Counted from the stretch's first letter, positions 2,981 to 57,656 are shown. The stretch: 64,000 nt of DNA from Novakomyces olei (GCA_016906335.1 JADEYG010000007.1:2356001-2420000); one strand, 5' to 3'. The notes: generated by a model not told the origin, from the letters alone. Numbers and translations: made by a program.

Positions 2981-5900
2981 TCAATGCGCAGCCAGTGCTT
3001 CCGTATTATTGATCGCAATACTTTTTGTCTAATTCGTCAGTAAACAAAGGAAACCCAAATAAATAAGAAACCCAAATAAATAAGAAACAAAAATAAATAA
3101 AAAAACAAAGCTTTTGAATCTAAATGTAAAACCCTACCTGATTATTGGTCTTGTAAATACCGATAAGCCGAGCGGCCAATTCAAACATATTATTGCGCAG
3201 AGAAATAACGACAAACTGCGCGTTCTTTGTCCGCTCCTTGATATAATTAGCGACGATGGACACGTTGCGAAAGTCCAATGCCGCGTCAATTTCGTCCATA
3301 ACATAGAGCGGGGTCGGCTTATAATGGTGCAGGGCAAATACAAGCGCCAAAGAGCTCAGAGTCTTTTCTCCACCCGACAAATTAGAAATGTTTTTCCATG
3401 ATTTCTTTGGAGGCATAACGCTAAACAGCACTCCCTCAGAAAACGGATCGAGACTATCTACCAGCTCAAGCTCAGCATTCCCGCCCAGAGTAATCATCTG
3501 GTACATTTCCTTTAGAACTGCAGAAATTGCATGAAAACCCTGCATGAACTCGTCCAATCGCCGACGGGAAAGATCTGTATGATTCGCCTTTGCCGAGTCG
3601 CGTCTCTGTGTCGCCTCGCCGAGATCGTGAGCCCGCGAATCGTACTCTTGACTTCTGCGAGCGTACTCTTCCAGCACGTCCAAATCTACTTTAGCATCGT
3701 GCAACTCTGCTTCGATTTCTCCGATTTCTTTTTTCAATATATCGCCGTCCATTGCACTTAATTCGTCGGCACTGTACTCTGTCAAAATCGTCTCTGCCTC
3801 GTCGACCGGTTTGCCAGCAACAAGTGTAGATTTGTCTGCTTCATCCACCTGCATACCATCATCATCGTCATCATCATCGTCATCGTTTACCGGCTCTTTA
3901 CCCGGCGCTGAACCAAAATTTAGCTGGTTCAGTTTCAGGCCCATTAGAGCTTCCTTGTAGTGCTGTTTCCGCTTGGTGTTTTCTGCTAGTGCCTTTTCAT
4001 TCTCCTCTAGTCGGGCCCGCAACTCTATTTCCTTTGCCCTCTGTTCGTTTCTCTGCTCGACGATTGCATCAATCTCCTGTTGCAGGCTCTCAAGCTGAGC
4101 AAGAGCCTCGTCCATTGCTTCCTCCAGTGTCCTTGCCGCTGCTTCATGCTCAGAGTGGGCGGATTCAAGGCTCTGCATCTCTTCATCAAGGCCGACAAGC
4201 TGCTCTTCCACTGCATCAAGGTCCCGTGACAAGTCGGCAATAGCCGCAGTATGCTTTTCCCCTTCTTTGCGGGTCCTCAGACTGTTCATTTCCGTGGCTT
4301 TTTGCTGTTGCTGCAATGTATCCAGCTGCTCTTGCAGTCCGTCTACTTTAGCCTTTTGACTACGCAGCCGAACTCCCCCCATCTCCATTATCCGCTCCTG
4401 CAATTGAGCAATTTCCTGCTCCAACGTACTGGTCTCACTACGGATCCTTTCAATTTCGCTATTGCTCTCTCCAATCCGTTCACGCAGAGCCTCAGCTTTA
4501 GCCGCCTCAGCAGCTGCCTCAGCAGCTGCTCCGGCAGATTTTACAAGGCCCTGCTCTTGTAAAATCCGTGCCCGTTCTGCCTCAGCGTCCTCCAATCTCG
4601 TAGCATGAGCAGTCTCGTCCAGGGCCGCCTTGTGCACTGCCAACTCCAATAGGGGCACTTGTTCTCGACTGGTTTCAACAACAGCTTCGGCCTGAACTAC
4701 TGCCTCTTCTGCTGCTTTTAATCCTGCCTGCGCCTGCGAGTACTCGGCCTCTAGCGCTTCACTTGAAGCCTGCTTGGTTTTACTGTTTGTTTTATTATTT
4801 GCTTTACTGCTATTGGCCATGCCACCTCGGCTTACACGGCTGCCTCCACCACTCATTGTCCCCGAACGATCAATCACCTGGCCCGTAAGCGTAACTACTC
4901 TCCAGCGCTGACCAGAGTACGCAACCTGATTGGCCTGTTCCAACGTATCTGCCACCAGAGTATTCTGCAAAACACTGAAAAAAGCCGGAGCGTAAATGGC
5001 TTCAGCAGGGCGGACAAGGTCAAACAGCCTTGCAACAGCATTGGGCACTCCTGCCGGCTTTTGCAGGTCACGTACAGGCAGCTTGTCAAGGACAATAAAG
5101 ACTGCTCTGCCCAAGTTGTTGCGCCTTAAGTACTCTATGCACGCTTGAGCAGTGGCCACTGTATCCACCACCATATTATCCAGAGCCGGACACGCTGTAG
5201 TAATGGCCACATCGTATGCCTCAGCTATACTGCCCAAGTCTCCGAGGCGGCCATAGAGGCCGTGGACCCGTCCAGACTCTCTCAGCCTGTAAAGAGCCGC
5301 TGTTACACTGTTCATGGACTGGCTGGCTGCCGCTGCTGCTCGAGACTCGTCCAGTCTCTGCTTGGCGGCACTAAAAGCCTCCGACTGCTGTATTAGACTC
5401 TGCTTTGCTATTGCTAATTGCTTTTCTGCTGACCCAAAGACTGACTGGGCCTGCTGCAATTGCTCTTGCACTTGCTTGACTTGAGCAGATTTAGAAGCTA
5501 ATGCTTCAGCCGCCTCTGTGACTCTTGCCTCAGCTGCCTCCTGCTCCCGAGTACGGAGGCTGGCCTTCTCTGCCAGCAATTCGAGCTCTGCTTGGGCCAA
5601 TTGTACCCGGTTCTCTGCTGCATTTATCTGTGCAGTAAAAGGCTGCAAAGCTCTCTGCCTCTCTTCGATCCCGGCTGAAAGATCAAGGGTTTTAGAGCCT
5701 AATTGCTCCCGTATACCGGCCAACACTTGACGTTCCTGCTCAATACGCTGGCGCAGCTCTTCCATGGCCACTGAGCGTTTGGCCATTTCTTGCCCATAAT
5801 TTTCACACCATGATTCTGCCTCGGAGACAGCTCTCTCCTCTGCCTGACGCGCACGCGATGTCTTTTTATGCTTGCCTACTAAATGACGCTGTGTCTCTTT

Positions 5901-16821: not shown

Positions 16822-18148
<1,327 letters not shown>

Positions 18149-21873: not shown

Positions 21874-21901
21874 AATTAATTAATTAATTAATTAAGCATT
21901 G

Positions 21902-22103
21902 AATATAATATAATATAATATAATATAATATAATATAATATAATATAATATAATATAATATAATATAATATAATATAATATAATATAATATAATATAATA
22001 TAATATAATATAATATAATATAATATAATATAATATAATATAATATAATATAATATAATATAATATAATATAATATAATATAATATAATATAATATAATA
22101 TAA
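21902..22103. repeat. (ATATA)n microsatellite of about 40 units
   Basis: Perfect tandem array. Confidence 0.98.
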
Positions 22104-22155
22104 TTGAATAATTGCATAAATAATATTGCGCTTGCGGCGTCAAGGCACCATTTCT

Positions 22156-29586: not shown

Positions 29587-32110
29587 ATGGCTGAAAACCT
29601 TCGTAGTGTATTTGCACAGGCAAAGCGCGAGGGCCGCAATGCCCTCGTCTCGTTTATCACCTGCGGGTTCCCGACGCTGGAAGATACGGTAGATATCTTG
29701 CTTGGTCTCGAGGCCGGTGGAACAGATATAATCGAGCTCGGAGTACCTTTTACTGACGCTCTGGCCGATGGTCCCACCATCTGCAAGGCCAATGATGTAA
29801 GCTTTGACGTGAAGAAATTGGAGACAAGAAAATGGGAAAAGACGGGCATTGAAAAGACGACGCGTACAAGGATCAAAACGAAACAAATTGAAGTCCAGTA
29901 TTTTCAAACCGAGATGAAGAATAATTTAAATCAAAAAATAATTTAAATCAAAAAATAATTTAAAAAAATAATTTAAAAAAAAATAAATAAATAAATAAAA
30001 AGCGAAATACAAAACGAACCAATTGCAAATTCGATCATGTTCTAACCAATTCTAATACTAGATCGCGCTGGAAAACGGAGTCACACTGCCCATCTGCTTG
30101 GATGTAGTGAAATCTGCACGGGCCCGTGGCTTATCTGCCCCCGTAGTGCTTATGGGCTACTATAATCCACTATTAATGTATGGCGAAGAACGAATAATTG
30201 CGGACACTCGGGCCGCTGGAGCCAATGGTTTCATTGTAGTGGATTTGCCACCGGAGGAGGCAGTTCGGTTCCGTGAGTACTGTACGCGTGACGGCTTGTC
30301 TTATGTGCCTCTAATTGCTCCCTCCACCTCGGACAAGCGCATAGAACTGCTTACTCGTATAGCTGACAGCTTTATATACGTTGTTTCGCGTATGGGCACT
30401 ACTGGCAGCAGTGCAACAGGTACAATGAGCGCTTCACTGCCTGAGCTGTGTGAGCGGATTCGTCGGCACTCGGGCGAAAAGCCAATTGCTGTCGGCTTTG
30501 GAGTGGCCACTCGTGACCATTTCCTGAGTGTCGGCAGTATAGCCGATGGAGTCGTGATTGGGTCCAGGATTATTTCTGTGATTCTGGAGGCTAAAGCCAA
30601 GGGGCAAAAAGCAGCAGCAGCAGCGCAAGAGTACATTTCCGAAATAACGCTTCGAGGAAACCCCACAGAGGCAAAGCAGACGCGTGATATCGGGATGGTA
30701 GAGTCGATTGCGGTAGCGAGAAACACGACTGTGCCCACTCCGACCGCTGTCGTCAGTGATGGACATACAAACGGAACTGAAAATAATAAGAATAAAAAAG
30801 TTAAAATCTCTAACGGAGAAGAGGCATTGCCAGACGGAAGCGCAGCACCAGACTATGCGTCTACCCTGCTCGACAGCGCCAAACTTCAAGTAGAATCTGC
30901 CCAGTTTATCCCACCAAGGTTCGGAGAGTTTGGTGGGCAATACGTGCCCGAGAGTCTGATGGACTGCCTGGCAGAACTGGAGGAGGCCTTCAACAGTGCC
31001 AACAACGACCCTGCCTTTTGGGAAGAGTTCCGGTCATACTACGACTACATGGGCCGGCCCAGTCATTTACACGTGGCTGACCGGCTAACGGAGCACGTTG
31101 GTGGAGCACGTATCTGGCTGAAGCGGGAGGACCTGAACCACACAGGCTCACATAAAATAAACAATGCCATTGGCCAAGTGCTGATTGCTCGCAGACTCGG
31201 GAAAACCCGGGTTCTGGCGGAGACAGGAGCCGGCCAGCACGGAGTGGCTACCGCCACTGCCGCTGCTAAATTCGGGTTGCAGTGTACAGTTTATATGGGG
31301 GCAGAGGATGTGAGAAGGCAGGCGCTCAATGTTTTCCGTATGAAACTGCTCGGAGCGCAGGTCGTGGCAGTCGAGTCCGGCACGAAAACTCTACGCGACG
31401 CTGTCAACGAGGCGATGCGTGCTTGGGTCACTAACCTGTCAACTACGCACTACGTCATTGGCTCGGCTATCGGCCCACATCCCTTCCCGACACTGGTCCG
31501 CACGTTCCAAAGCGTGATTGGCCAGGAGACCAGGGAGCAGTTACTTGCCAAGGCGAGCAAGTTACCGGACGCGGTGATCGCTTGCGTGGGCGGAGGCAGT
31601 AACAGTGCGGGCATGTTTTACCCCTTTGCGCGGGATGAAAGTGTCAGGCTGATTGGCGTTGAAGCTGGTGGAGAGGGCGTTGATACGGATGGCCGTCACG
31701 GAGCCACTTTGTCCCGCGGGACAAAGGGCGTCTTTCACGGAGTCAGGACTTATATATTGCAGGACGATGAAGGGCAGATACTGCCGACACATTCAATCTC
31801 TGCCGGCCTTGATTACCCGGGCGTCGGGCCTGAGCTGGCGATGTGGAAGGATATGAACCGTGCCGAGTTTATCTACGCCCTCGACCACGAAGCGTTCCAG
31901 GGGTTCAAGGATCTGTCTCAATTGGAAGGGATAATCCCGGCCCTTGAATCCTCCCACGCTATTTACGGTGGCATGAAGGTGGCTGCGAGTATGCGACCCG
32001 ACCAGGATATCGTTATCTGCCTGTCTGGAAGGGGGGATAAGGACGTGCAAACAGTAGCGGAAGAACTGCCAAAGCTCGGGCCCAAGATTGGCTGGGATTT
32101 GCGGTTCTAG
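29587..32110 (+). CDS. TRP5: Fused tryptophan synthase alpha-beta, 2 exons
   Basis: [63 protein letters not shown]; intron 29797-30061. Confidence 0.98.
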
Positions 32111-32655: not shown

Positions 32656-34977
32656 CTACCCGATGTACATCCGTCCGAGATCTGTGAGCTCCCCGTTCCA
32701 GATAAGAGAACCATTGACACCGCCTATAGTTTCCAAGTCAGAAGGCCCAAACCAAGCGTACCGTTCAACTCCACTATTGCCGTCGAGGAAGGACAGAGCC
32801 TCCGTCATAAACTGTGCCACATCTTCAAATTTCGGCTTAATTGTAGGATCCCAGTTTGTATAAGCGAATTCTGTAACCCACACGGGTCGGTTGTACTTTG
32901 TCTGCCAGTACTGTACCCATTCTCGGAACTCGGAAATGACACTCCCGTGCCAGTGAACCGGGATAAAGTCGTATGCACAGCCGCCGTAAAACCTGTCACA
33001 TTCTTTGGTCCAGTCTGCGAACCATTGCTGGCCTATTGCGGAGTGTGTAACCGCCGGAGCTCCAAGTCGCATTTTGAACTCCGTGCGCGCCGGCTCCATA
33101 TAATAGTTCCATACATGGGCCGCCTTCGCGGGTGTGGCCTGTGTATCATCGTCGGGCTCATTGAAGCCCAAAATAGTTTTGGATAATAGGTCGCGCCCTT
33201 GGCTATATCCCCGCCTTAGAGTATCCAGCCTTGTGTAGGCCATATCGCAGTCCCTGACAGTGAAAACGAATTCCAACTTGCTAAGTTGTTGGACCCAATT
33301 GACACCGCGTGGTCGTGAGTCCCAGTGCTCCCAGTTGTATAACCACGTGATCTTACCGGCAGCTGCTGCTTCGGCAAACAGCGGTAAGTAATCCGATTTG
33401 GACTCCGGCCATGCTAGGCCACGTTTCTTGGAAGAGCCCGGCAGAGATTTGGGCGCTGTTCCAAGGATGGATGTGGGGGTTGATGTGGGGGTAGTGCTGG
33501 TGGGGGTTGATGTGGGGGTAGTGCTGGTGGGGGTTGATGTGGGGGTAGTGCTGGTGGGGGTTGATGTGGGGGTTGATGTGGGGGTTGATGTGGGGGTTGA
33601 TGTGGGGGTCGATGTGGGGGTAGTTCTGGTGGGGGTAGTGCTGGTGGGGGTAGTGCTGGTGGGGGTAGTGCTGGTGGGGGTCAATGCGGTGTTAGTGTCA
33701 GAGGTGGAACCTCTTGCCTCAGAGTTACTTGTTTCCACACTTGATCTTGTCGACAAACTCGCGCCATTAGCGTTCGCTATAACAGAAGAGGATGACGTAG
33801 TCGGGACAGGTGATTGCGAGCTTCCCCTGCTTGCTTGAATCAAGCTTGAAAGACTCCAACTTGCCCCTTCAAATAGAGAAGAGTTTGAACTCGTTGCTGA
33901 AGCAGTTGGCCTTGAAACCGTAGAGACGTCTAGGCCATCGTTGCCTCCAGTTGATGCAGCCACCAAGTCTGCCATGGACGAAAATCCTGGCGTTGAATCA
34001 GCATAAGCCGAGGTTGGGTTAGCAAGAGAGGACGTTGCAGAAGGGGTGGTCGATGGCGATACACTGGCTTGATTATTAGGGCTCCTTGATCCACCGGAGC
34101 TATTTGATCCGTCTGAATTGCTTGATCTACTTGATTCACTGCTTGACCTAGGGCTCCTTGATCCACCGGAGCTATTTGATCCGTCTGAATTGCTTGATCT
34201 ACTTGATTCACTGCTTGACCCGCTGTTCACTCCACTCCTCCATCCGCTGTTTGTTCCACTGCTCGTTCCACTGCCCGCCTCACTATTCGTTCTACTATTC
34301 CACCCGTTGTTCGAATCGCTGCTCGTCCCGCTACTCGACTCACTGTTTGTTCTACTGTTCGTTCCACTGTTCGACCCGCTAATCGCAGAAGGAAGAGCTT
34401 GTCCGTTCGCAATAGCAGAAGCTTGATATGCGACCGCGGTATTTGAGCCAAGGACACAAGCTGGGCACGCCACAGAGGGCGGTAGTGCAGTGGCAGGTGC
34501 ATCAAGCCCTATAGTGTACGAAACATATGAACCGTCATCCGTTAAGTATTGGCCATTCCGATAAATCACGTAAGCACGCCCAGGATGGCGTATAAGCAGG
34601 GCAGCAGTTTCTCTCCAACTGTCCCTGAGAGAGACAATGTAAGCGAGCGAATGCGAGACGTTCTGTTCGGCAACAAGCAAATCGTTGTCTATAGTGCGAT
34701 TGAAAATGGAGCAATGATTAATATCGTTTTTCTGCCAAACTTGGAAATATTCGCAGTCGGCTGCCAGTGTGCACAGGTATGCGCAAGCTTCTGGTGAGTA
34801 ACTCGACGTACGGAAACCCGCAATGAAAGCTTCGGTATCGCGAACAGCGATCTTATTGCCGAGGTCCAACGGTGGCTCAAAGCCATGAATGAAGACGGCT
34901 TCTGGCGCATCTGTCTCTTGCACGATTTCTATCTGCGCCACCGTAGCTATCATCGAGGCGATAGGGAAAAGGCGCAT
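32656..34977 (-). CDS. Secreted GH128 (Asl1-like) beta-1,3-glucanase with a Cys-rich N-terminal module and S/T-rich stalk
   Basis: Signal-like N-terminus; KRGLAWP, WLYNWE, LGFNEPD, PVHWH, VWVTEFA, VERYAWFG. Confidence 0.88.
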   Translation of the reverse strand: MRLFPIASMIATVAQIEIVQETDAPEAVFIHGFEPPLDLGNKIAVRDTEAFIAGFRTSSYSPEACAYLCTLAADCEYFQVWQKNDINHCSIFNRTIDNDLLVAEQNVSHSLAYIVSLRDSWRETAALLIRHPGRAYVIYRNGQYLTDDGSYVSYTIGLDAPATALPPSVACPACVLGSNTAVAYQASAIANGQALPSAISGSNSGTNSRTNSESSSGTSSDSNNGWNSRTNSEAGSGTSSGTNSGWRSGVNSGSSSESSRSSNSDGSNSSGGSRSPRSSSESSRSSNSDGSNSSGGSRSPNNQASVSPSTTPSATSSLANPTSAYADSTPGFSSMADLVAASTGGNDGLDVSTVSRPTASATSSNSSLFEGASWSLSSLIQASRGSSQSPVPTTSSSSVIANANGASLSTRSSVETSNSEARGSTSDTNTALTPTSTTPTSTTPTSTTPTRTTPTSTPTSTPTSTPTSTPTSTPTSTTPTSTPTSTTPTSTPTSTTPTSTPTSILGTAPKSLPGSSKKRGLAWPESKSDYLPLFAEAAAAGKITWLYNWEHWDSRPRGVNWVQQLSKLEFVFTVRDCDMAYTRLDTLRRGYSQGRDLLSKTILGFNEPDDDTQATPAKAAHVWNYYMEPARTEFKMRLGAPAVTHSAIGQQWFADWTKECDRFYGGCAYDFIPVHWHGSVISEFREWVQYWQTKYNRPVWVTEFAYTNWDPTIKPKFEDVAQFMTEALSFLDGNSGVERYAWFGPSDLETIGGVNGSLIWNGELTDLGRMYIG
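33470..33680 (-). repeat. Coding tandem repeats encoding (TPTS/TPTST)n
   Basis: gtgggggttgat and gtgggggtagtgctg units. Confidence 0.9.
34076..34220 (-). repeat. Tandem duplication of ~72 nt encoding SSSESSRSSNSDGSNSSGGSRSP twice
   Basis: Two near-identical adjacent copies. Confidence 0.9.
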
Positions 34978-36759
34978 AGTGAAAAATAATCAAAACAAAA
35001 GAAATTGCCAGAGCCAAATGGATATAGAAAGTTAAGACTTGCTTAAAAGCGTATACTGCCGCGACTTTGAACTCGGTAAATGTGATATTTAATCAAGGCG
35101 AACTGGTTTGTTCTGCAAACCCGTTACTCTCAAAGCCCAGCAAGTTTGAGATCTTTACGTTCTCTCAAAAACGAGGACATCTTTTGCATGGCCAGCTCTG
35201 AATTTATATATCTAATTCGCTTTCACTCTATTGACAGACGCGCTAATCGCGAATAAATTAATTTGTGCTATTGTCACCGTTTTGTGATTATAGAGACGCG
35301 CACTGGCCCAATATGGTAATCGTATCGAGCCATGTAGCTCTAACCGAGTTTTAGGTACACGTCAGAAACTCGGATATGCATTTTGGGGGGTTAGCTGGAA
35401 TGATTACTTGAAAAAAATGACGAGTATAATCAAGTATTATTGGTGTCGGAGAGAAGTTCGTATTAACATTTTGCTACTGGCTAGATTATTTTACTCTTGA
35501 AGGCTGGAATGAATAAAATGTTAGGACAAATTGGTAAACTTTTGGCCGAATCCACGCGCACAAGGGGCATCTTCGATCAGGGAGAAGGAATTTTCTGAAT
35601 TTTTGCAGCAATGTCGTGCGTTTCAGAGGCCAATATAGGCTAGCATCGCGCTCAAGCTGGGTCTGGCCACGTATAGCATAGCAAGTTTGTAAACAGGCAA
35701 ATGGAGGGTAAATGATTTCAGCAGGAATAGAGGGTTAAATGGCAATAGGTTTATTATTGAGCACAGTAACAATAACTAATCACGGCTGCTAATATTAAGC
35801 TATATGGCATTTAAATTATTTGAAAACTCTCTGACGTTATCGGGTGTCTACCCCGTGAAAGAGAAAAGGGTTTGTACCCCCGTTTTCTGCAACGCGTTTA
35901 GACTCGGGTTAAGGAAAAAAGGATATGTGGCTATACACGTCTCAAGGCCAAGGCCTTAAATATTTACTAACAATGAGTAGAGCTAGTTGTATTGAAAAAA
36001 TAGACACCGTTTGAAATTGGTGTGGCTATCATCGACAACTAAAGAGTCGGCATTTCGACAACAGTAAGACCAGGAAATCATAGTCATATATATTTTGTTA
36101 TATAGTTCTTAATGTAGTTTTCATATATCGTTAATTATATAGTTTATATGAAGGAGCCCACTTATACAACAAACCATCCCACCCTCGCGCATCATCAAAA
36201 CTACCTACCACCGCAAGGCACGCGATAAGGACTTTATACGCGGCTCTATCGTATAAAAATTCTATACTATTAACATTATTTAATTATACTATTCTTGTCG
36301 AGTTTTAAATTAGATTACAATAAACTCCTTAATGGATAACTATTAGAATGTAACTTTGCAAGATAATCTTCGTTACCCGTACACAAAATCGTCGCCTGCG
36401 CTCGATTAGCAAACACTGCAATCCACCTCTTCACTTTGGCAGCCAATGCTGATGCAAGTGAATTCCCCCAATAACCTAGCACTGATTATTACGAATTGGA
36501 AATTTCAAACGCAATACGAAAAACTGATAACATTAATGTACTATACAATGTGTCAAAAAGGAGAGATACTCCTGCGCTCCTGTGCTTGCGGGCTAAATAC
36601 GAACCACACATATATACAACCAGGGACGTATAAATATTTACAAAAAAAAGAAATCTGTAGATTCTTGCCGTCGAAACCAGCAAAGTTTCACTTTTTCGGT
36701 TCGGCGGAAGAAAAATCGAGTAAGGAGAGCCGTCCGTCCTCGTCGCCGTATACAATATG

Positions 36760-37330
36760 TCTCCTTCAATTTATTATTATTCTCATTCTCTGCCCTTTTT
36801 ACACTTTTACATCACCATTTTTACTTGATCCTTTTCTTATTTTAAATACAATCCTATATAATACTTTATAATATTATAACAATCTTGCTTTCAATAACTA
36901 TCCTTTTTCAACCTTTCTTTGCCAACTTCTACATAACACTATTCCCATTTTCTATTTCTATTTTCCTCTACTTCCTATCTCAACTACAACTCTCTCCCTC
37001 CCTTCATCCAACAATATATTTCTCTACTCAATTATATCATAAATAACCCTAACCCTAAATAAATAATACCACATAATCTTCTTACATAACTCCACTATAT
37101 TAATCCCCCATACAATAATCCCCATACATTAATACCATATATTAACACCATACATAATTCACACATACATTAATCCCTATACATTATTCCCCCATACATT
37201 ATTCCCCCATTATACCATACATTATTATACATACATTACTTTACATTATAATACCATATATTATTATGCCATACATTATTATACATACATTACTTTACAA
37301 TACATTATTCTACTATATATTATTAGACCA
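36760..37330. other. Extreme strand-skewed low-complexity tract (G-depleted on +) with CCCATACATT-like repeats and TAACCC repeats
   Basis: Only 5 G in 36760-37325 and none in 36922-37267 (hand count). Confidence 0.9.
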
Positions 37331-37761
37331 TTCATTATACATACATTAGATTGTTGAGAATAAATGGCGATAGTAACATGGACGTCCACATCGGTACAGG
37401 CAGATTCAAATAAGATTGAGGTGGAACACATTACTGAGAAATGGTTTACAGAAACAAAGAATTGGATTACGATTTTTGTGCATCAATAAACTTTAAATAA
37501 CCCTAACCCTACTGGTACTATCAAATCAGTGAACTTTAAACTGTAGAGCCGCCGACCTTGTCAAACTGGCTTTACAATGCCAATCTAACATCCTCGGGTC
37601 GGCTTTTACATACAGATACTATGTGATGATCCAAGTCCCGTCCAAGCCATAGTTCAATTAGTCTTGTATGATTGACTTCTATTTCCATTTTTCTTGACCA
37701 AGTTCTTCCAATGTCGTAATTGCAAATGCAAGACACAATCAAACTCGATATTGGTCTAATT

Positions 37762-38231
37762 TTAATGCTCGAGATGATAATGTGAAAGTTTCGCAGATCG
37801 GCGTCTTAGCAACTCTTCTTGCTCTAAAAGCATCTGTGTCTCCCAAAGTCTACGCGTTGTACTACGAGCAGGCTCGTCAGCCGCCGATGTTTCCTGCGGG
37901 GACCATGGGGGCGACCATTGCGGTATCATCAAATTTTCTTGTTTGGGTTTTCTCCATGTAGAAGAACCCATAAAAAGACTCTCATCTTCGGCCTGTTGTG
38001 TATAAATTTCGTCGACTGCTTTGGTCTGTGCAAGCATTTTCGCCAGCCACGATCGACACCTTGCTCTCGCTTTGCGGCTTTCTGCCAACATACTCGTCAT
38101 TGTTAGAAAGCCATGGCTCACTCCACGCAGCAGTTCAAGTGTTACATCTGCTTCTTTGCGAGACGATGACTTACTGGAGCTTTTTGCCTCGCGAATACGG
38201 CCGGCAAAAATGAGCTTGACATCAGAGTTAA

Positions 38232-38278
<47 letters not shown>

Positions 38279-40219
38279 ATACATAGTTAATTAATTAATT
38301 AAAGGTATAATAAGCCTACCGAATCGTCCACAAACGGATCTACTTCCCCACACAAAATATACGTGGGCGGAAACCGTTCGAGTAGGGATTTTGGAGCCAG
38401 TAGCGGCGACAAAAGATAGTCAGACGATACGTCTATATTCACATGTGGTCCAACATAACTCATCGCCATGAGTCGCTACATGCTTATTAGCAAGGAGGAA
38501 TAAGAAAAAGCCAGTAATAATTTAAAATCGAATAAATAATTTTTAATAATAATTCAAAAATAATATTGATAGAAAAATAATAAAAAAACGGCCAATACCA
38601 TCATATCAGGCGAGATGATTCTGTCTTGGTAGTACGTAACTCGCGACGTCATTACGAGAGGGCGCATCTTTTCTTTAGGCCGCGCCTTTTCTTTACGACC
38701 AACGGTGGCCGTGTTTGCTACGGCTGTCAAAGCAGAAACAGCAGGCTCACCTGAACGATCGATGCGTCTCGAAGCCTGCATCCATGACCGACTTGTCTTT
38801 CTTTCAATAACGGAATTATTCTTAAATAAATCATTCTTGCTTTCCTGCCGAACGAGCCTTAGATGATTAGAGTTCATCCAAGTATCGATATTAAAATCTA
38901 GAAATGGGTACACAAGAACAAGACCATCGGGCGGGGTTACTGCGTCCGGCTGCCCGCGCCGACTAAGACTTTCAAGTGTAACTCCTGCCGCAAAATTGCC
39001 TCCACTTGATGCCGTTAGTATTCATAAAGAGGTGTTAACTATATTCAATAAATCAATCTTACGCAGAGTCTCCAATGAGGGCAATTTTGTCCAAGGTGCG
39101 GTCTTCGATTCCGGCACAGGCGCCACGCGTTAATCTTAGAGCGCGGTACACGTCAATGCATTCGTTTATTTGGTAAGGATAGGTTTTCTCCGGTGCCTTG
39201 ATATAGTTCACGCTCAGAATAGGGACTTTGAGTTTTCGTGCCCATGGAATTATGCAGTCTGCCAGAGTAAGCGGGGCATGAGAGAAAAGGAACAAGAAAG
39301 CAAATGTAATAGACATAAGATGAATGGAAAAGTATGTGCTGCAAGATGAAAAAAGAATAAATAAAAGCATAAAGCAACCAAAATACTGGCCAACCTTCGT
39401 GACACTGAGGAGACATTGAAATAAACCCGCCGCCTGGTAAATGAAGAACCAAGTGCCGCTGTGATCGAAGACTCAACTCGCTGCCGTCGTAGTATAGAAA
39501 GCACTCAACTGGGTCCTCTGCTTCCCGGTGTATAAGAATGCGACGCCTGATTTCAATAGAAGGAGTTACGAGCCAAGCAAGAAAGTGCAGTACCGGCGTT
39601 GTAGATTTCTCCCAGCTGCAACGTAGATGCTCTACAGTCGCCATAGACTTGATCTTCCTCGTTTTTATATCCGCATCTTCGGCAAAGGCCAGATAGTATA
39701 CTGTGAAAAGCATTTCTGCCGTATTACGTAGCCACATGGGTCTAATCGTCATTGCCGTCCAGAACCCAGCGTCCCTAAAGATTAGCTCAGTCTGCCGCAT
39801 AACTTTTATTTTAGATTATTCCAGTTTAGCTCAGTTCAGTTTGTTTTAGACGTATGCTTGAGCTACTCTTACATTGCGGTCAGGATCCATGTAGCCCGGT
39901 AAAAAGACCGACTGTACTGATAACCATTAGAATCACGTATTACACAGGAAATTACCATATAAGCCAAAGGCTCAACCGCGCCAAGGCCCAGCAATTTGTC
40001 CATGTTTTTCAAGAGGTAAACAAAATTCAACGTTCCGACAACGAGCTGCCACGCAGAAAAGCGGGTAGAAAGCCGTTTGCTCAATGATTGTAAAAACAAC
40101 AGTTTCGGTCCATGAGTTGGACTCACGTGCAAAACAAAGAGCCAAAAGGCAAGAGAAAAAAGAGACTGCAAACGCTTGACGTTTGCCGATCCCGGCCGTC
40201 CTGCAATATGATCAATCAT
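37762..40219 (-). CDS. Hormone-sensitive-lipase-like alpha/beta hydrolase, 7 exons
   Basis: MIDHIAGRP, LHLPGGGF, VNYIKAPE..YP, GDSA|GGN split by an intron, GEVDPFVDDS, GVSHGFL. Confidence 0.9.
38230..38300. repeat. (TAAA)n/(TTAA)n microsatellite in the last lipase intron
   Basis: Tandem array read directly from the sequence. Confidence 0.9.
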
Positions 40220-40392
40220 TGAAGGATTTTGCTATACAAGTGCCTTTTCCATGTGCCGTTGATGTTTTCTCTTATAAACCTCATTTTCACGTGAAGATCA
40301 GACGAGACTGTGGGGTATGCATAAATGAAGCGTTTTGATTGGCTCAAGAAAAGGGGCTAGGACATTTTTCTATGGAAAATTAGGTAGTCGAT

Positions 40393-40771
40393 AATAAATA
40401 CAATAAATACAATAAATACAATAAATACAATAAATACAATAAATACAATAAATACAATAAATACAATAAATACAATAAATACAATAAATACAATAAATAC
40501 AATAAATACAATAAATACAATAAATACAATAAATACAATAAATACAATAAATACAATAAATACAATAAATACAATAAATACAATAAATACAATAAATACA
40601 ATAAATACAATAAATACAATAATACAATAAATACAATAAATACAATAAATACAATAAATACAATAAATACAATAAATACAATAAATACAATAAATACAAT
40701 AAATACAATAAATACAATAAATACAATAAATACAATAAATACAATAAATACAATAAATACAATAAATACAA
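40393..40771. repeat. (AATAAATAC)n 9-nt satellite of about 42 units, with one variant near 40620
   Basis: Tandem array between the MMS22 stop and the lipase start. Confidence 0.98.
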
Positions 40772-40894
40772 TATTGACATCCCATAGTTTATTACAGAAT
40801 ACTAAATACAGTATTCGACGTCTATAAAACAACAAACTCAAACTTTATACAATTTCTAACACTCCTTTCCTGCAAATCCCCAATAATATAGAAC

Positions 40895-43800
40895 TCAACC
40901 GCGATTCTGCCAACACTCGCGTAGAATCGCCAGCTTGCTCAGCCTGGGCAATTTGGCAAAACAGGCATTTACGCCGACTTGTGCGCTATTCCCGAGTTTG
41001 CAGGTATGCGATATGAACGTGACGAGACTGTGCGTAAAGCGGCCCACATCTGCTCCCTCGTTTTCCGGACCTAAAAGTAGCCCAGGACGATCATTTTGCC
41101 CCGCAAATCCGTCCGGTGGAAGCATAGTGAACACTGTACCCCGACAATGAGAGAAAGCAGGTAGATCCACGCCGACAGCAGCATTAGTGTCTCGGCCTCT
41201 AAACGCCTTGGCAATAAACTCGGCAAGGCAGTTTATAAAGTGTAGAAGCAGACGCTCTACAGCATCCACACGTGCTTCGGCCGCTGATGACAATGTTAGT
41301 ACGGCAAACAGGGTCATCGAGTCACAAATGCGACCGACTGAGCATAGGATTACTGGATTGCTGTGAGCACAATCGCCTTGACTTAGACGGCAGACAAAGG
41401 CAGTAGCAGCAGCATGAAACTGGGCAAAGAATCTGTTGAACAGGGACCAGCACTCGGCATAGCAGTTGCTGCCCGCCTGAGGCCACTCGGCCATAACAAG
41501 CGAAGCAAAGCCGCCGAGCAGGGTACAAGTTCGTTTCACGTCTGGGAGCAGTTCACTGTGTATTTGATAGTGCAAAAGGTCTCGGCACACGATTTCCTGT
41601 AGGAAATAATCCTGGTAAACAAGCAATGCATCTGTCGATGCATTGTGCTGGCCAGCAGTCGTCAGCATTTTGGCAATAATCAACTGAGCACCCGAGTCGG
41701 CGTAGGGGTCGCTGATATGTACATTAGTGCTACTATCCGTCTGCGAATGAGCGGCAGTTTGTGACATTATGTAGGCCAGCAGGTAAGCCTTCTTGCCGTC
41801 TGTACTGTCCCCATGAAAAAGCAGATGGCTTCGAGCGTTTTGAGCAGAAGCAAGCAGACCTCCAATGGCAGCTGAAAAACTAGTATGCTGTACAAACCAG
41901 TGCAAAGCCTCGCTGTCTGAAATAAAAGGCTGCGCGTACTGGACAACAAGGTCCAGAACAGACTGGCAAAACTTGCGGTAAGCCAAAGTGGCTGTAGACA
42001 CGGAGGACGTAGACGCAAAAGGTCTATTGCTTAGCGACTGACGCGTCTCTGTGCGCTTATAGCCTGCTTTCAAAGAGACCAGTATTGCCTGTACGTTTTC
42101 TGCGTACTCATACCGAAGCGCCTGGCCGTAGACTTGTCCCTGATCTCGGACACATTTCACGTACTCTGCATTCATATTCGCCAGCGCAATTTCAAGCAGA
42201 AAAGCTCTGCTCAAAGGATCAGCAACGCTACCAGTCAAATGCTGCAGTTGCGCCAAGAGTGGGTGGAGGCAGTCTTTTGTTAGCAAACGTGTCAACGTCT
42301 GCAAGCTCTGGCTCTGCTCATCAAACGGCTGGACCATTGCACTAAACCAGCAACGCAGAATCGAAGTGGGGGCAGACGCAAAAGCACTGCTGTCCTTCTG
42401 CAGTACACAGGCCATGAAAAAGGACTCATGCTCCTGCTTACTGGCACTCCTTTGAATACGTGACCATCCCTGGCTCCCACTGTCGATAAAATACTGCCAG
42501 TCGCGCATTCTAAACATGACAAGGTAGTGGCAAAATGTTGTCCATTTTGTTATCAAATCCTCAACGGCACCTCGACTGACGGAAGCTTCTTCCGACAACC
42601 AGCTGCTCAGTGTCTGGAATACGGCGGGAGATACTGCAACGAGATCAGCATACGCATTCGCCTCTAGCCACATCGTTTGGCCAGAAACAAGATCTTCAAT
42701 GTCAAACGTGTCCTCATACTCTTGGCTATCGTCAGGCAGGCTTTGCCTCTGCACGGCTGTTGCTCCCGTGCCGGGCTGGATTGCATACAACATTTCACAG
42801 AAATGTACTACAAAGTCCATACAGCACAGCACCACATGGGGGCGGAAATCAAAAGAATTTGTCATTATCGCATCGACAGATTCTGTGGCACTTTAGTCAA
42901 TGTTCTATAAAAAAATAGAAAAAATGGGGAAAATAGGAAAAATAGGAAAAATGGAGAAAATAAAGAAAAATAAATAAATTAAATAAAAGTAGTGAATTAA
43001 AAAAAAAAAAAAAAACAGCGAATTGAAGGACTTTTTCCATTGGCTGAGACTCCAAAACTAACCTCTTGGAAACAGTTTTGTCGTGGCAAAGTGATCAATA
43101 TTCACAAATTTCAATAGCCTCGCAAACTCCGTAAATGCTGAGCAGACTAGTATCTCGTTTTTCCGCAAATTTTTGTCGTCTAATTGGGATCCAAGCTTTG
43201 TTTGCACTTGGCTGTGTAAAGTTCTATGCGTGTCCCTGTTTCTCTCCTCCTCCCTGTCATGGACCGCTCTGTTTTCATTTGCCTTGAAAGAGGACACTAC
43301 CAGGGCACAGAGTTGGGCAGTGACCTGTCTAAACCACTGTAAGGGTAAAAGCAAGTCAATAGAGTGCTGAAGACTATGCTGCATTATACAGTACCATGAT
43401 CGCAGCTCAATGACGTACGAGTCGAACCCCGAGACGGGTAAAGGGTGAGCAAAGTCTCTAATCATATCCACGGAAGGTCTTCCTTTCCCGGGAACTACAC
43501 AGAAAAGGCAGACCAGGAGGGACACGACATTTCGGACAGACAGCCACAGGCTCCCCGAATCTCGAGGCACACCTACTGGAGTGAGCAGGTAGGGAACATT
43601 TGCAAGTCCCTGACCAGCGCTAGAGTCCCGAAAAAAATCCACAATTAATTTCAAAAAAGCCGTGAAAGCATCGTCTGTTGCCTCGGGCTCAAAGACTGCT
43701 TTTGTGTCAATTTCAAACATAAACTGAGGCAGAGAAGACGGTAGGGTAAAATCGTCTGTGATGGCAAACTTGTACTGCTTAAAATGGTCATAAAAAAGCT

Positions 43801-57634: not shown

Positions 57635-57656
57635 TAACCCTAATCCTAACCCTAAC
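57635..57656. repeat. Interstitial telomere-like (TAACCC)n box upstream of the BIT61-like gene
   Basis: TAACCCTAATCCTAACCCTAAC. Confidence 0.8.

Follow-up and report, generated by a model that had tools for sequence, protein, structure and literature searches.

Along 571 nt of the + strand (36760-37330) of the DNA analysed here, a stretch of 64,000 nucleotides referred to as the window, guanine is nearly missing and cytosine is common, and the question that this locus raises is how such a tract came about. An earlier note on the same DNA had proposed either the remains of a gene or transposon that strand-specific C->T mutation had ruined, or a telomere-like, G-strand-biased repeat. The reading that we favour, with a confidence a little above an even chance, is that the tract is a local non-coding copy of a G-poor multi-copy repeat family and forms part of the spacer between two - strand genes.

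The window is an ordinary gene-dense region of an ascomycete nuclear genome. By Pfam searches on long open reading frames (ORFs), its genes include those for a fused tryptophan synthase, a V-ATPase subunit, an SMC protein, Arp2/3 p34, the primase small subunit, Tsr1, Mus7/MMS22, an MFS protein, Ytp1 and an HbrB-like protein, and none of the 25 long ORFs carries a transposon, methyltransferase (RID/DIM-2 type included) or deaminase domain. A tRNA scan of the window returned no genes, Rfam gave no matches at E <= 1 over 34900-37900, and terminal telomere arrays were absent from the 64 kb. For the fused tryptophan synthase (30062-32107, +), none of 7,995 scored proteins exceeds 69% identity, and its best named relatives are those of Saitoella, many Dothideomycetes and Lipomyces (65-69%); in that protein collection, this ascomycete thus lacks a close sequenced relative.

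As the earlier note had placed it, the tract lies in the gap 34978-37761, between the ATG of one - strand gene at 34977 and the stop codon of another at 37762. The last long open frame of the upstream neighbour, a hydrolase gene, ends in a stop at 37762-37764, and the tract is 432 nt downstream of it; the downstream neighbour starts at 34977 (protein start MRLFPIASMIATVAQ), with the tract 1,783 nt upstream. Within this downstream gene, a coding minisatellite of 15/27-nt units was also found at 33470-33681, where the + strand has a GC skew of +0.84, as was a perfect tandem duplication of 72 nt (34077-34220). The features of the locus, each with the evidence that defines it, are:

32656-34977 (-): secreted-type Glyco_hydro_cc gene, downstream neighbour (Pfam; ORFs)
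36760-36921 (+): left block, T-rich (49% T), G-poor (4 G in 162 nt), non-repetitive (composition; k-mer recurrence)
36922-37043 (+): G-free complex block, CT/A-rich (composition; k-mer recurrence; contig comparison)
37044-37058 (+): short interstitial telomere-type repeat, (TAACCC)2.5, which is TTAGGG-type on the - strand (repeat scan; word count)
37059-37098 (+): G-free spacer, in which the multi-copy relatives diverge at 37065 (read contigs)
37099-37345 (+): degenerate minisatellite, about 17 units of 13-15 nt, with 2 G (repeat scan; unit listing; k-mer recurrence)
37497-37512 (+): AAATAACCCTAACCCTA again, beyond the tract and some 250 nt downstream of the stop codon of the hydrolase gene (37018-37057 versus 37472-37511, 78% over 41 nt)
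37762-39815 (-): alpha/beta-hydrolase (Abhydrolase_3) gene, upstream neighbour, with several exons and AT-rich introns (Pfam; ORFs)

The + strand of the tract comprises 188 A, 228 T, 149 C and 6 G, the latter at 36792, 36827, 36887, 36921, 37268 and 37326, and 36922-37267 is a G-free run of 346 nt; the earlier count (five G in 36760-37325, none in 36922-37267, C common) was exact. When 64 kb were simulated 50 times under a first-order Markov model, the longest run without one of the four bases was 42.6 nt on average and 62 nt at most. The left edge is as abrupt as had been described, with normal G in 36700-36759, a GC skew of -0.89 to -1.0 over 36800-37300 and a skew near 0 in the flanks. On the - strand, the tract is A 0.40, G 0.26 and T 0.33 (66% purine, 1% C), and its + strand purine fraction of 0.34 is the minimum among all 571-nt segments of the stretch (first percentile 0.368). 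At the tract boundaries no terminal inverted repeats were found, and the search for target-site duplications gave just ATTATT-type low-complexity matches and one 7-mer, TACAATA, at about the chance rate. A solo LTR was rejected, as TG...CA ends with a duplication were not found.

A scan for |GC skew| >= 0.8 per 150 nt with at least 20 G+C returned only three sites in the window, namely 33439-33710, which is the coding minisatellite, the G-poor tract itself, and 40633-40796, where a perfect 9-mer array has its edge. The tract is exceeded in length by another G-free run, the longest in the window, at 40391-40775 (385 nt); there a perfect (AATAAATAC)42 minisatellite (40393-40773; 99% match) lies next to the Mus7/MMS22 gene (-), on its downstream side. 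Other long simple arrays, AT-only or C-free, are present at about 17450-17600 ((AAAT)n), at about 21900-22105 ((ATATA)n) and at 38230-38303 ((AATA)18), as is an A-rich 9-mer array at 42906-43015; several of the long simple arrays sit between open frames of one gene and are probably intronic. The genome is unusually rich in long, clean simple repeats, and from the other long arrays of the window that lack one or two bases it follows that such tracts are readily built in it.

The tract consists of two unlike halves, a complex left part and a tandem right part. Recurrence of k-mers in 36760-37043 is not above that in 300 dinucleotide shuffles (z of 0.7 and -1.3), and head-to-tail units were not found there; the wider block 36922-37098 is 32% A, 32% C and 36% T. 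Head-to-tail units do make up 37099-37345, where the k-mer recurrence (z of 6.0 and 9.5) was reached by none of the 300 dinucleotide shuffles. The unit of this minisatellite is CATACATTATT plus 2-5 nt, some units having a C4-5 run; periods of 14, 15 and 29 are seen with 73-75% matches, together with a 54-nt higher-order duplication (37216-37269 versus 37270 onward). Read on the - strand, the tract has G5 runs at 10-nt spacing.

Between the two halves lies the telomere-type box. The word AACCCTAACCCTA at up to one mismatch has four matches in the window versus 0.04 expected, a number reached by none of 100 shuffles, and the 17-mer AAATAACCCTAACCCTA occurs with the box and again at 37497-37512, with a three-unit variant at 57636-57655. 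Short telomere-type repeats of two to three TAACCC units are thus present at 37045-37057, 37499-37511 and 57636-57655, all in one orientation and in spacers near gene ends; they may be binding sites for a TTAGGG-box factor. A 41-codon ATG-to-stop frame (37364-37489, +) is situated exactly between the tract and the second box; no Pfam family matches it, and it is probably due to chance. A telomerase RNA gene was rejected as a candidate, given the lack of Rfam matches at E <= 1 and the position of the box in the multi-copy part of the tract.

The stretch is contained in two public sequencing runs from two studies (X1 and X2), one of which is possibly the source of the assembly itself. Contigs from X1 and X2 match 36821-37160, 36734-37065, 37280-37955 and 37296-38221 without a difference, with no exact piece over 37161-37279 among the pieces listed. 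Because most of the tract is reproduced exactly, it is no obvious assembly artefact.

In each run there is also a variant contig that shares about 95% identity with 36917-37065 over at least 150 nt, is equally G-free and is much deeper than the exact contig (15,684.5 versus 1,143.5, or 13.7x, in X2; 41.8 versus 4.3, or 9.7x, in X1). The changes C36917T, A36938T, C36968T, A36986C, A37030C and A37034C and a 6-nt deletion at 36959 are found in both runs; T37019A is on the variant contig in X1 and on another contig (depth 15,304.9) in X2. None of the differences listed for the variant contig makes a G. The variant departs from the window at 37065, reads TCACCG and rejoins at 37180, and the 30-mer common to the tract and this multi-copy contig includes (TAACCC)2.5. 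A variant contig with the same changes in two runs is good evidence for multi-copy relatives, and contig depth puts the left block at about 10-25 copy-equivalents.

Summed depths over the tract, by comparison, are only an indication of extra copies. In X2, five contigs carry the 36917 variant (summed depth 29,296), and 39 contigs have A instead of the G of the tract at 37268 (894,851 of a summed depth of 934,013); over 37216-37416, the summed depth is 342,784 versus about 1,190 in the right flank for X2, and 452 versus about 4.3 for X1. These contigs were placed on low-complexity, AT-rich sequence at a likeness of 80% or more. Some of the extra depth may be spurious, since unrelated deep contigs from X3 and X4, which contain next to none of the stretch (only 33-37-nt pieces with 3-7 differences), also match 36930-36966 and 37286-37322 (37 nt, 6-7 differences).

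Contig joints in the minisatellite skip 34, 61, 106 or 114 nt or go back by 39 or 43 nt, and they reveal length variation between copies by whole unit groups. Among the 25 differences listed inside the tract, one makes a G (36823), two remove a G (36887 and 37268) and ten are transitions; transitions account for 14 of the 15 differences listed in the flanks. No G stands among the inserted letters listed, and the loose ends of other copies have 0-1 G per 20-30 nt. One X2 contig at single-copy depth (1,052.9) differs from 36850-37099 by 34 substitutions and 10 gaps (about 14% divergence), and the flanks of the tract show 0-5 differing letters per contig. Contig depth in the left flank (34000-36800) is about twice that in the right flank (37417-40000) in both runs (about 2,000-2,900 versus about 1,190 in X2; about 5-17 versus about 4-5 in X1), and the exact and the 14%-diverged tract contigs each have roughly single depth; possibly, a duplicated or heterozygous segment has its edge at the tract.

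Searches for the family by other routes added no copy. Ordinary blastn showed no second copy in the 64-kb window, its only matches being the internal repeats and weak low-complexity ones. In metagenome scans, neither an exact 27-nt word across the telomere-type box nor an exact 22-nt word from the minisatellite had any locus. The 66-aa + frame through 36846-37043 served as a protein query, and none of its 25 word-sharing candidates reached E <= 1; a literature search on G-free or guanine-free tracts and strand asymmetry found no comparable tract among the papers listed.

The composition, the tandem structure of the right part, the non-repetitive left part, the lack of a coding signal and the deeper G-poor relatives in two read sets were observed directly; that the tract is a copy of a G-poor repeat family is the best reading of them. 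A member of such a family would start with a complex CT/A-rich block of about 300 nt that closes with a telomere-type box of 2.5 units, and a minisatellite built from G-free units of 13-15 nt would come next. The right half would owe its lack of G to a G-free unit that replication slippage or unequal exchange multiplied, with the length of this half presumably still changing between copies, and the left half would be G-free as the founder of the family was already so. Given a G-free founder and a multiplied G-free unit, the tract would not have been made by deamination at 36760-37330. In its right 240 nt, the tract resembles minisatellites and simple arrays that lack one base, with head-to-tail G-free units of 13-15 nt and group-wise differences between copies; in its left 280-340 nt it does not, this part being equally G-free yet without repetition beyond that of its composition. 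This left part (4 G in 339 nt) speaks against the repeat-family reading, as expansion of a unit cannot explain it; so do the possibly spurious share of the contig depth, the absence of another copy from the 64-kb window and the lack of metagenome loci for the two exact words. About 300 nt of complex, non-repetitive and nearly G-free sequence is hard to obtain by slippage or neutral decay, and inheritance from a founder shifts the question of the missing G rather than answering it. Since neutral decay of an old G-free repeat should add many G, the left block is either young, constrained or under a strand-specific bias. The family would be a dispersed nuclear repeat, a subtelomere-type element or organellar DNA.

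A narrower version of the repeat-family reading, which we regard as unlikely although it ranks above the other alternatives, takes the tract for an interstitial copy of a subtelomere-type element with relatives beside chromosome ends; the - strand would then be the G-strand-like one, C-free, purine-rich and with a TTAGGG-type box. Two features looked for in such an element were found, a telomere-type repeat, (TAACCC)2.5, located within both the tract and the 30-mer that it shares with the multi-copy contig, and relatives at 9.7-13.7x depth; the roughly 10-25 copy-equivalents of the left block fall in the range of chromosome ends. Strand-biased subtelomeric elements with scattered short telomeric stretches occur in budding yeasts, for example TelKO of Naumovozyma castellii (PMC12408736), and such strand-biased elements are also cited for K. 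lactis and for Y' of S. cerevisiae (PMC3698924). The tract is like TelKO-type elements, on described features and not on sequence similarity, in being a few hundred nt long, multi-copy, biased on one strand and interspersed with telomeric stretches; it differs from them in lying between housekeeping genes without a terminal array, and in that its bias is a missing base and not TG-richness. Housekeeping genes on both sides and the lack of a terminal array in 64 kb thus weigh against a subtelomeric origin, as do the G-free sequence on both sides of the box and the further boxes at 37499 and 57636, which lie in ordinary spacers and imply that the boxes are not specific to the tract. The earlier suggestion of a telomere-like or G-strand-biased repeat holds in part, for the box, the G-free tandem units and the multi-copy relatives; the position, however, is among housekeeping genes and not at a chromosome end.

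That the tract is a NUMT, with its deep relatives being the mitochondrial genome, is less likely still. Mitochondrial spacers are AT-rich with clusters of C or G, and the tract has the look of an AT-rich repeat with C4-5 clusters and abrupt boundaries within a spacer; the relatives are 10-14x deeper, and the ratio differs by run (9.7 versus 13.7), as an organelle-to-nucleus ratio would. However, 26% C with 1% G over 570 nt would be unusual for mitochondrial DNA, and a 15-nt telomere-type repeat would be odd there. The several contigs of unequal depth per site (5 at 36917, 39 at 37268) better fit a heterogeneous nuclear family, and no mitochondrial protein domain was found by Pfam in six frames.

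With about as low a probability as for a NUMT, the family could be one of putative strand-asymmetric chromosome elements of a few hundred nt, with a C-free sense (-) strand and TTAGGG-type boxes. Their putative roles would be those of gene-end terminators or insulators acting via a C-free RNA with G runs or a displaced strand, or of centromere or origin modules present once per chromosome; on this view the left half, which is G-free and not repetitive, would act as the functional core, with the minisatellite as an appendage.

A related proposal is that the tract is a functional strand-asymmetric element whose composition is selected, either a terminator or insulator between tandem - strand genes, acting via a G-rich, C-free nascent RNA or displaced strand and proteins that bind the TTAGGG box, or a small centromere or origin on each chromosome. 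We consider this very improbable. In its favour are the position 432 nt downstream of the hydrolase stop, an extreme, positive GC skew on the strand that is sense for both neighbours, the G5 runs of the - strand at 10-nt spacing, and a copy number (about 10-25) that could correspond to one per chromosome or chromosome arm. TTAGGG-type boxes lie in and beside the tract, and such boxes bind Tbf1-type insulator and nucleosome-excluding factors in yeast (reviewed in PMC6410037). The tract is like interstitial telomeric sequences and Tbf1-type boxes in having two to three telomere-type units in spacers, at three sites per 64 kb and in one orientation; it is unlike them in that its box, a candidate by its sequence, makes up 15 of 570 nt and leaves the G-free flanks unexplained. 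Moreover, G is just 26% of the - strand, the gap measures just 2.8 kb in a gene-dense region, and an allelic or paralogous copy at single-copy depth has 34 substitutions and 10 gaps in 250 nt beside nearly identical flanks, which speaks against sequence constraint.

The least probable of these proposals, to which we give hardly any credence, is that the tract is a gene or transposon relic whose - strand cytosines were lost by processive strand-specific deamination, or, in a variant, that a deaminated copy was the founder of the family. The loss of G from all contexts and the abrupt onset would fit such a process, and RIP or cytidine-deaminase G->A hypermutation likewise involves repeated relatives in which one base is nearly gone on one strand. 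A further point in its favour is that the tract reads ACCA in units where the loose ends of other copies read ACCG, which is G->A at CpG; this is ordinary CpG decay at two or three sites, and at 37268 the tract is the copy with G. In-silico C->T conversion of a purine-rich coding region (3825-4407, -; an SMC coiled coil) gives A 0.33, G 0.31 and T 0.36, which resembles the - strand of the tract, so that purine content alone is compatible with a relic. Transitions keep the purine/pyrimidine class, and with a purine fraction at the window minimum a one-off conversion would thus need an ancestor that was already extreme, a consideration that is not decisive.

The other tests speak against a relic. 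Six-frame translations of 36400-37500, with X at stops, matched no Pfam family at E <= 10, a threshold at which the HMMER filters drop most matches above about 0.1, and the faint likeness to kinase subdomains VIb/VII that had been reported did not hold up in these frames. C->T change on the - strand spares the C of the + strand, and codon periodicity should therefore survive in a relic; in 36760-37098, + strand C is distributed over the three positions as 31/31/30 (chi2 0.0), compared with a median chi2 of 8.9 (10th percentile 1.7) in 39 - strand coding segments of the same length and 2.8 in 22 putative non-coding segments, although frameshifts in an old relic could blur this signal. The - strand open frame of the earlier note does contain the quoted peptides, but stops account for 18 of its 191 codons, as many as in a second - frame (18 of 190; the third has 23 of 190). 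A pseudogene of a protein kinase or other coding gene on the - strand was rejected on the same counts.

A three-letter alignment with G and A collapsed and the tract masked, run against both strands of the window for the unmutated paralog that had been postulated, scored 81.1 bits, which equals the maximum of 30 shuffles (mean 65.5; reversed tract 64.0). The mutation spectrum is no more favourable, as only two of the 25 listed tract differences are A<->G changes. CpA is not depleted (observed/expected 1.10), TpA and ApT number 94 and 95, and TpG, the first target of classical RIP, is the context of five of the six G that survive. The relatives in the reads are also G-poor, and the right half of the tract is a tandem repeat. 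Compared with DNA altered by RIP or a deaminase, the tract thus has no CpA/TpG depletion, retains G in TpG, has untouched C on the other strand, shows no unmutated partner in the window and has relatives that are equally G-poor. Because the dinucleotide test and the partner search in the window and the read contigs failed, the tract is not RIP-mutated DNA. The origin by strand-specific C->T mutation put forward earlier is hence not supported, given the lack of a Pfam match, of codon periodicity and of a paralog above shuffles in the window, and given the G-poor relatives. Repeat expansion, and no C-containing ancestral copy, is largely what was found instead, the exception being the non-repetitive left half.

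The right half of the tract is thus best filed as an ordinary degenerate minisatellite, and the whole as a strand-asymmetric repeat, possibly related to telomere-associated sequence. A strand that looks bisulfite-treated need not mean hypermutation. Read as another strand-asymmetric repeat in a genome with many simple-sequence arrays, the tract matters little; what is noteworthy is a complex G-poor sequence of about 300 nt with 10-25 near-identical relatives and a telomere-type box. Should chromosome ends, centromeres or gene ends prove to be marked by these relatives, the family would offer a way into the chromosome architecture of an ascomycete lineage that is poorly sampled.
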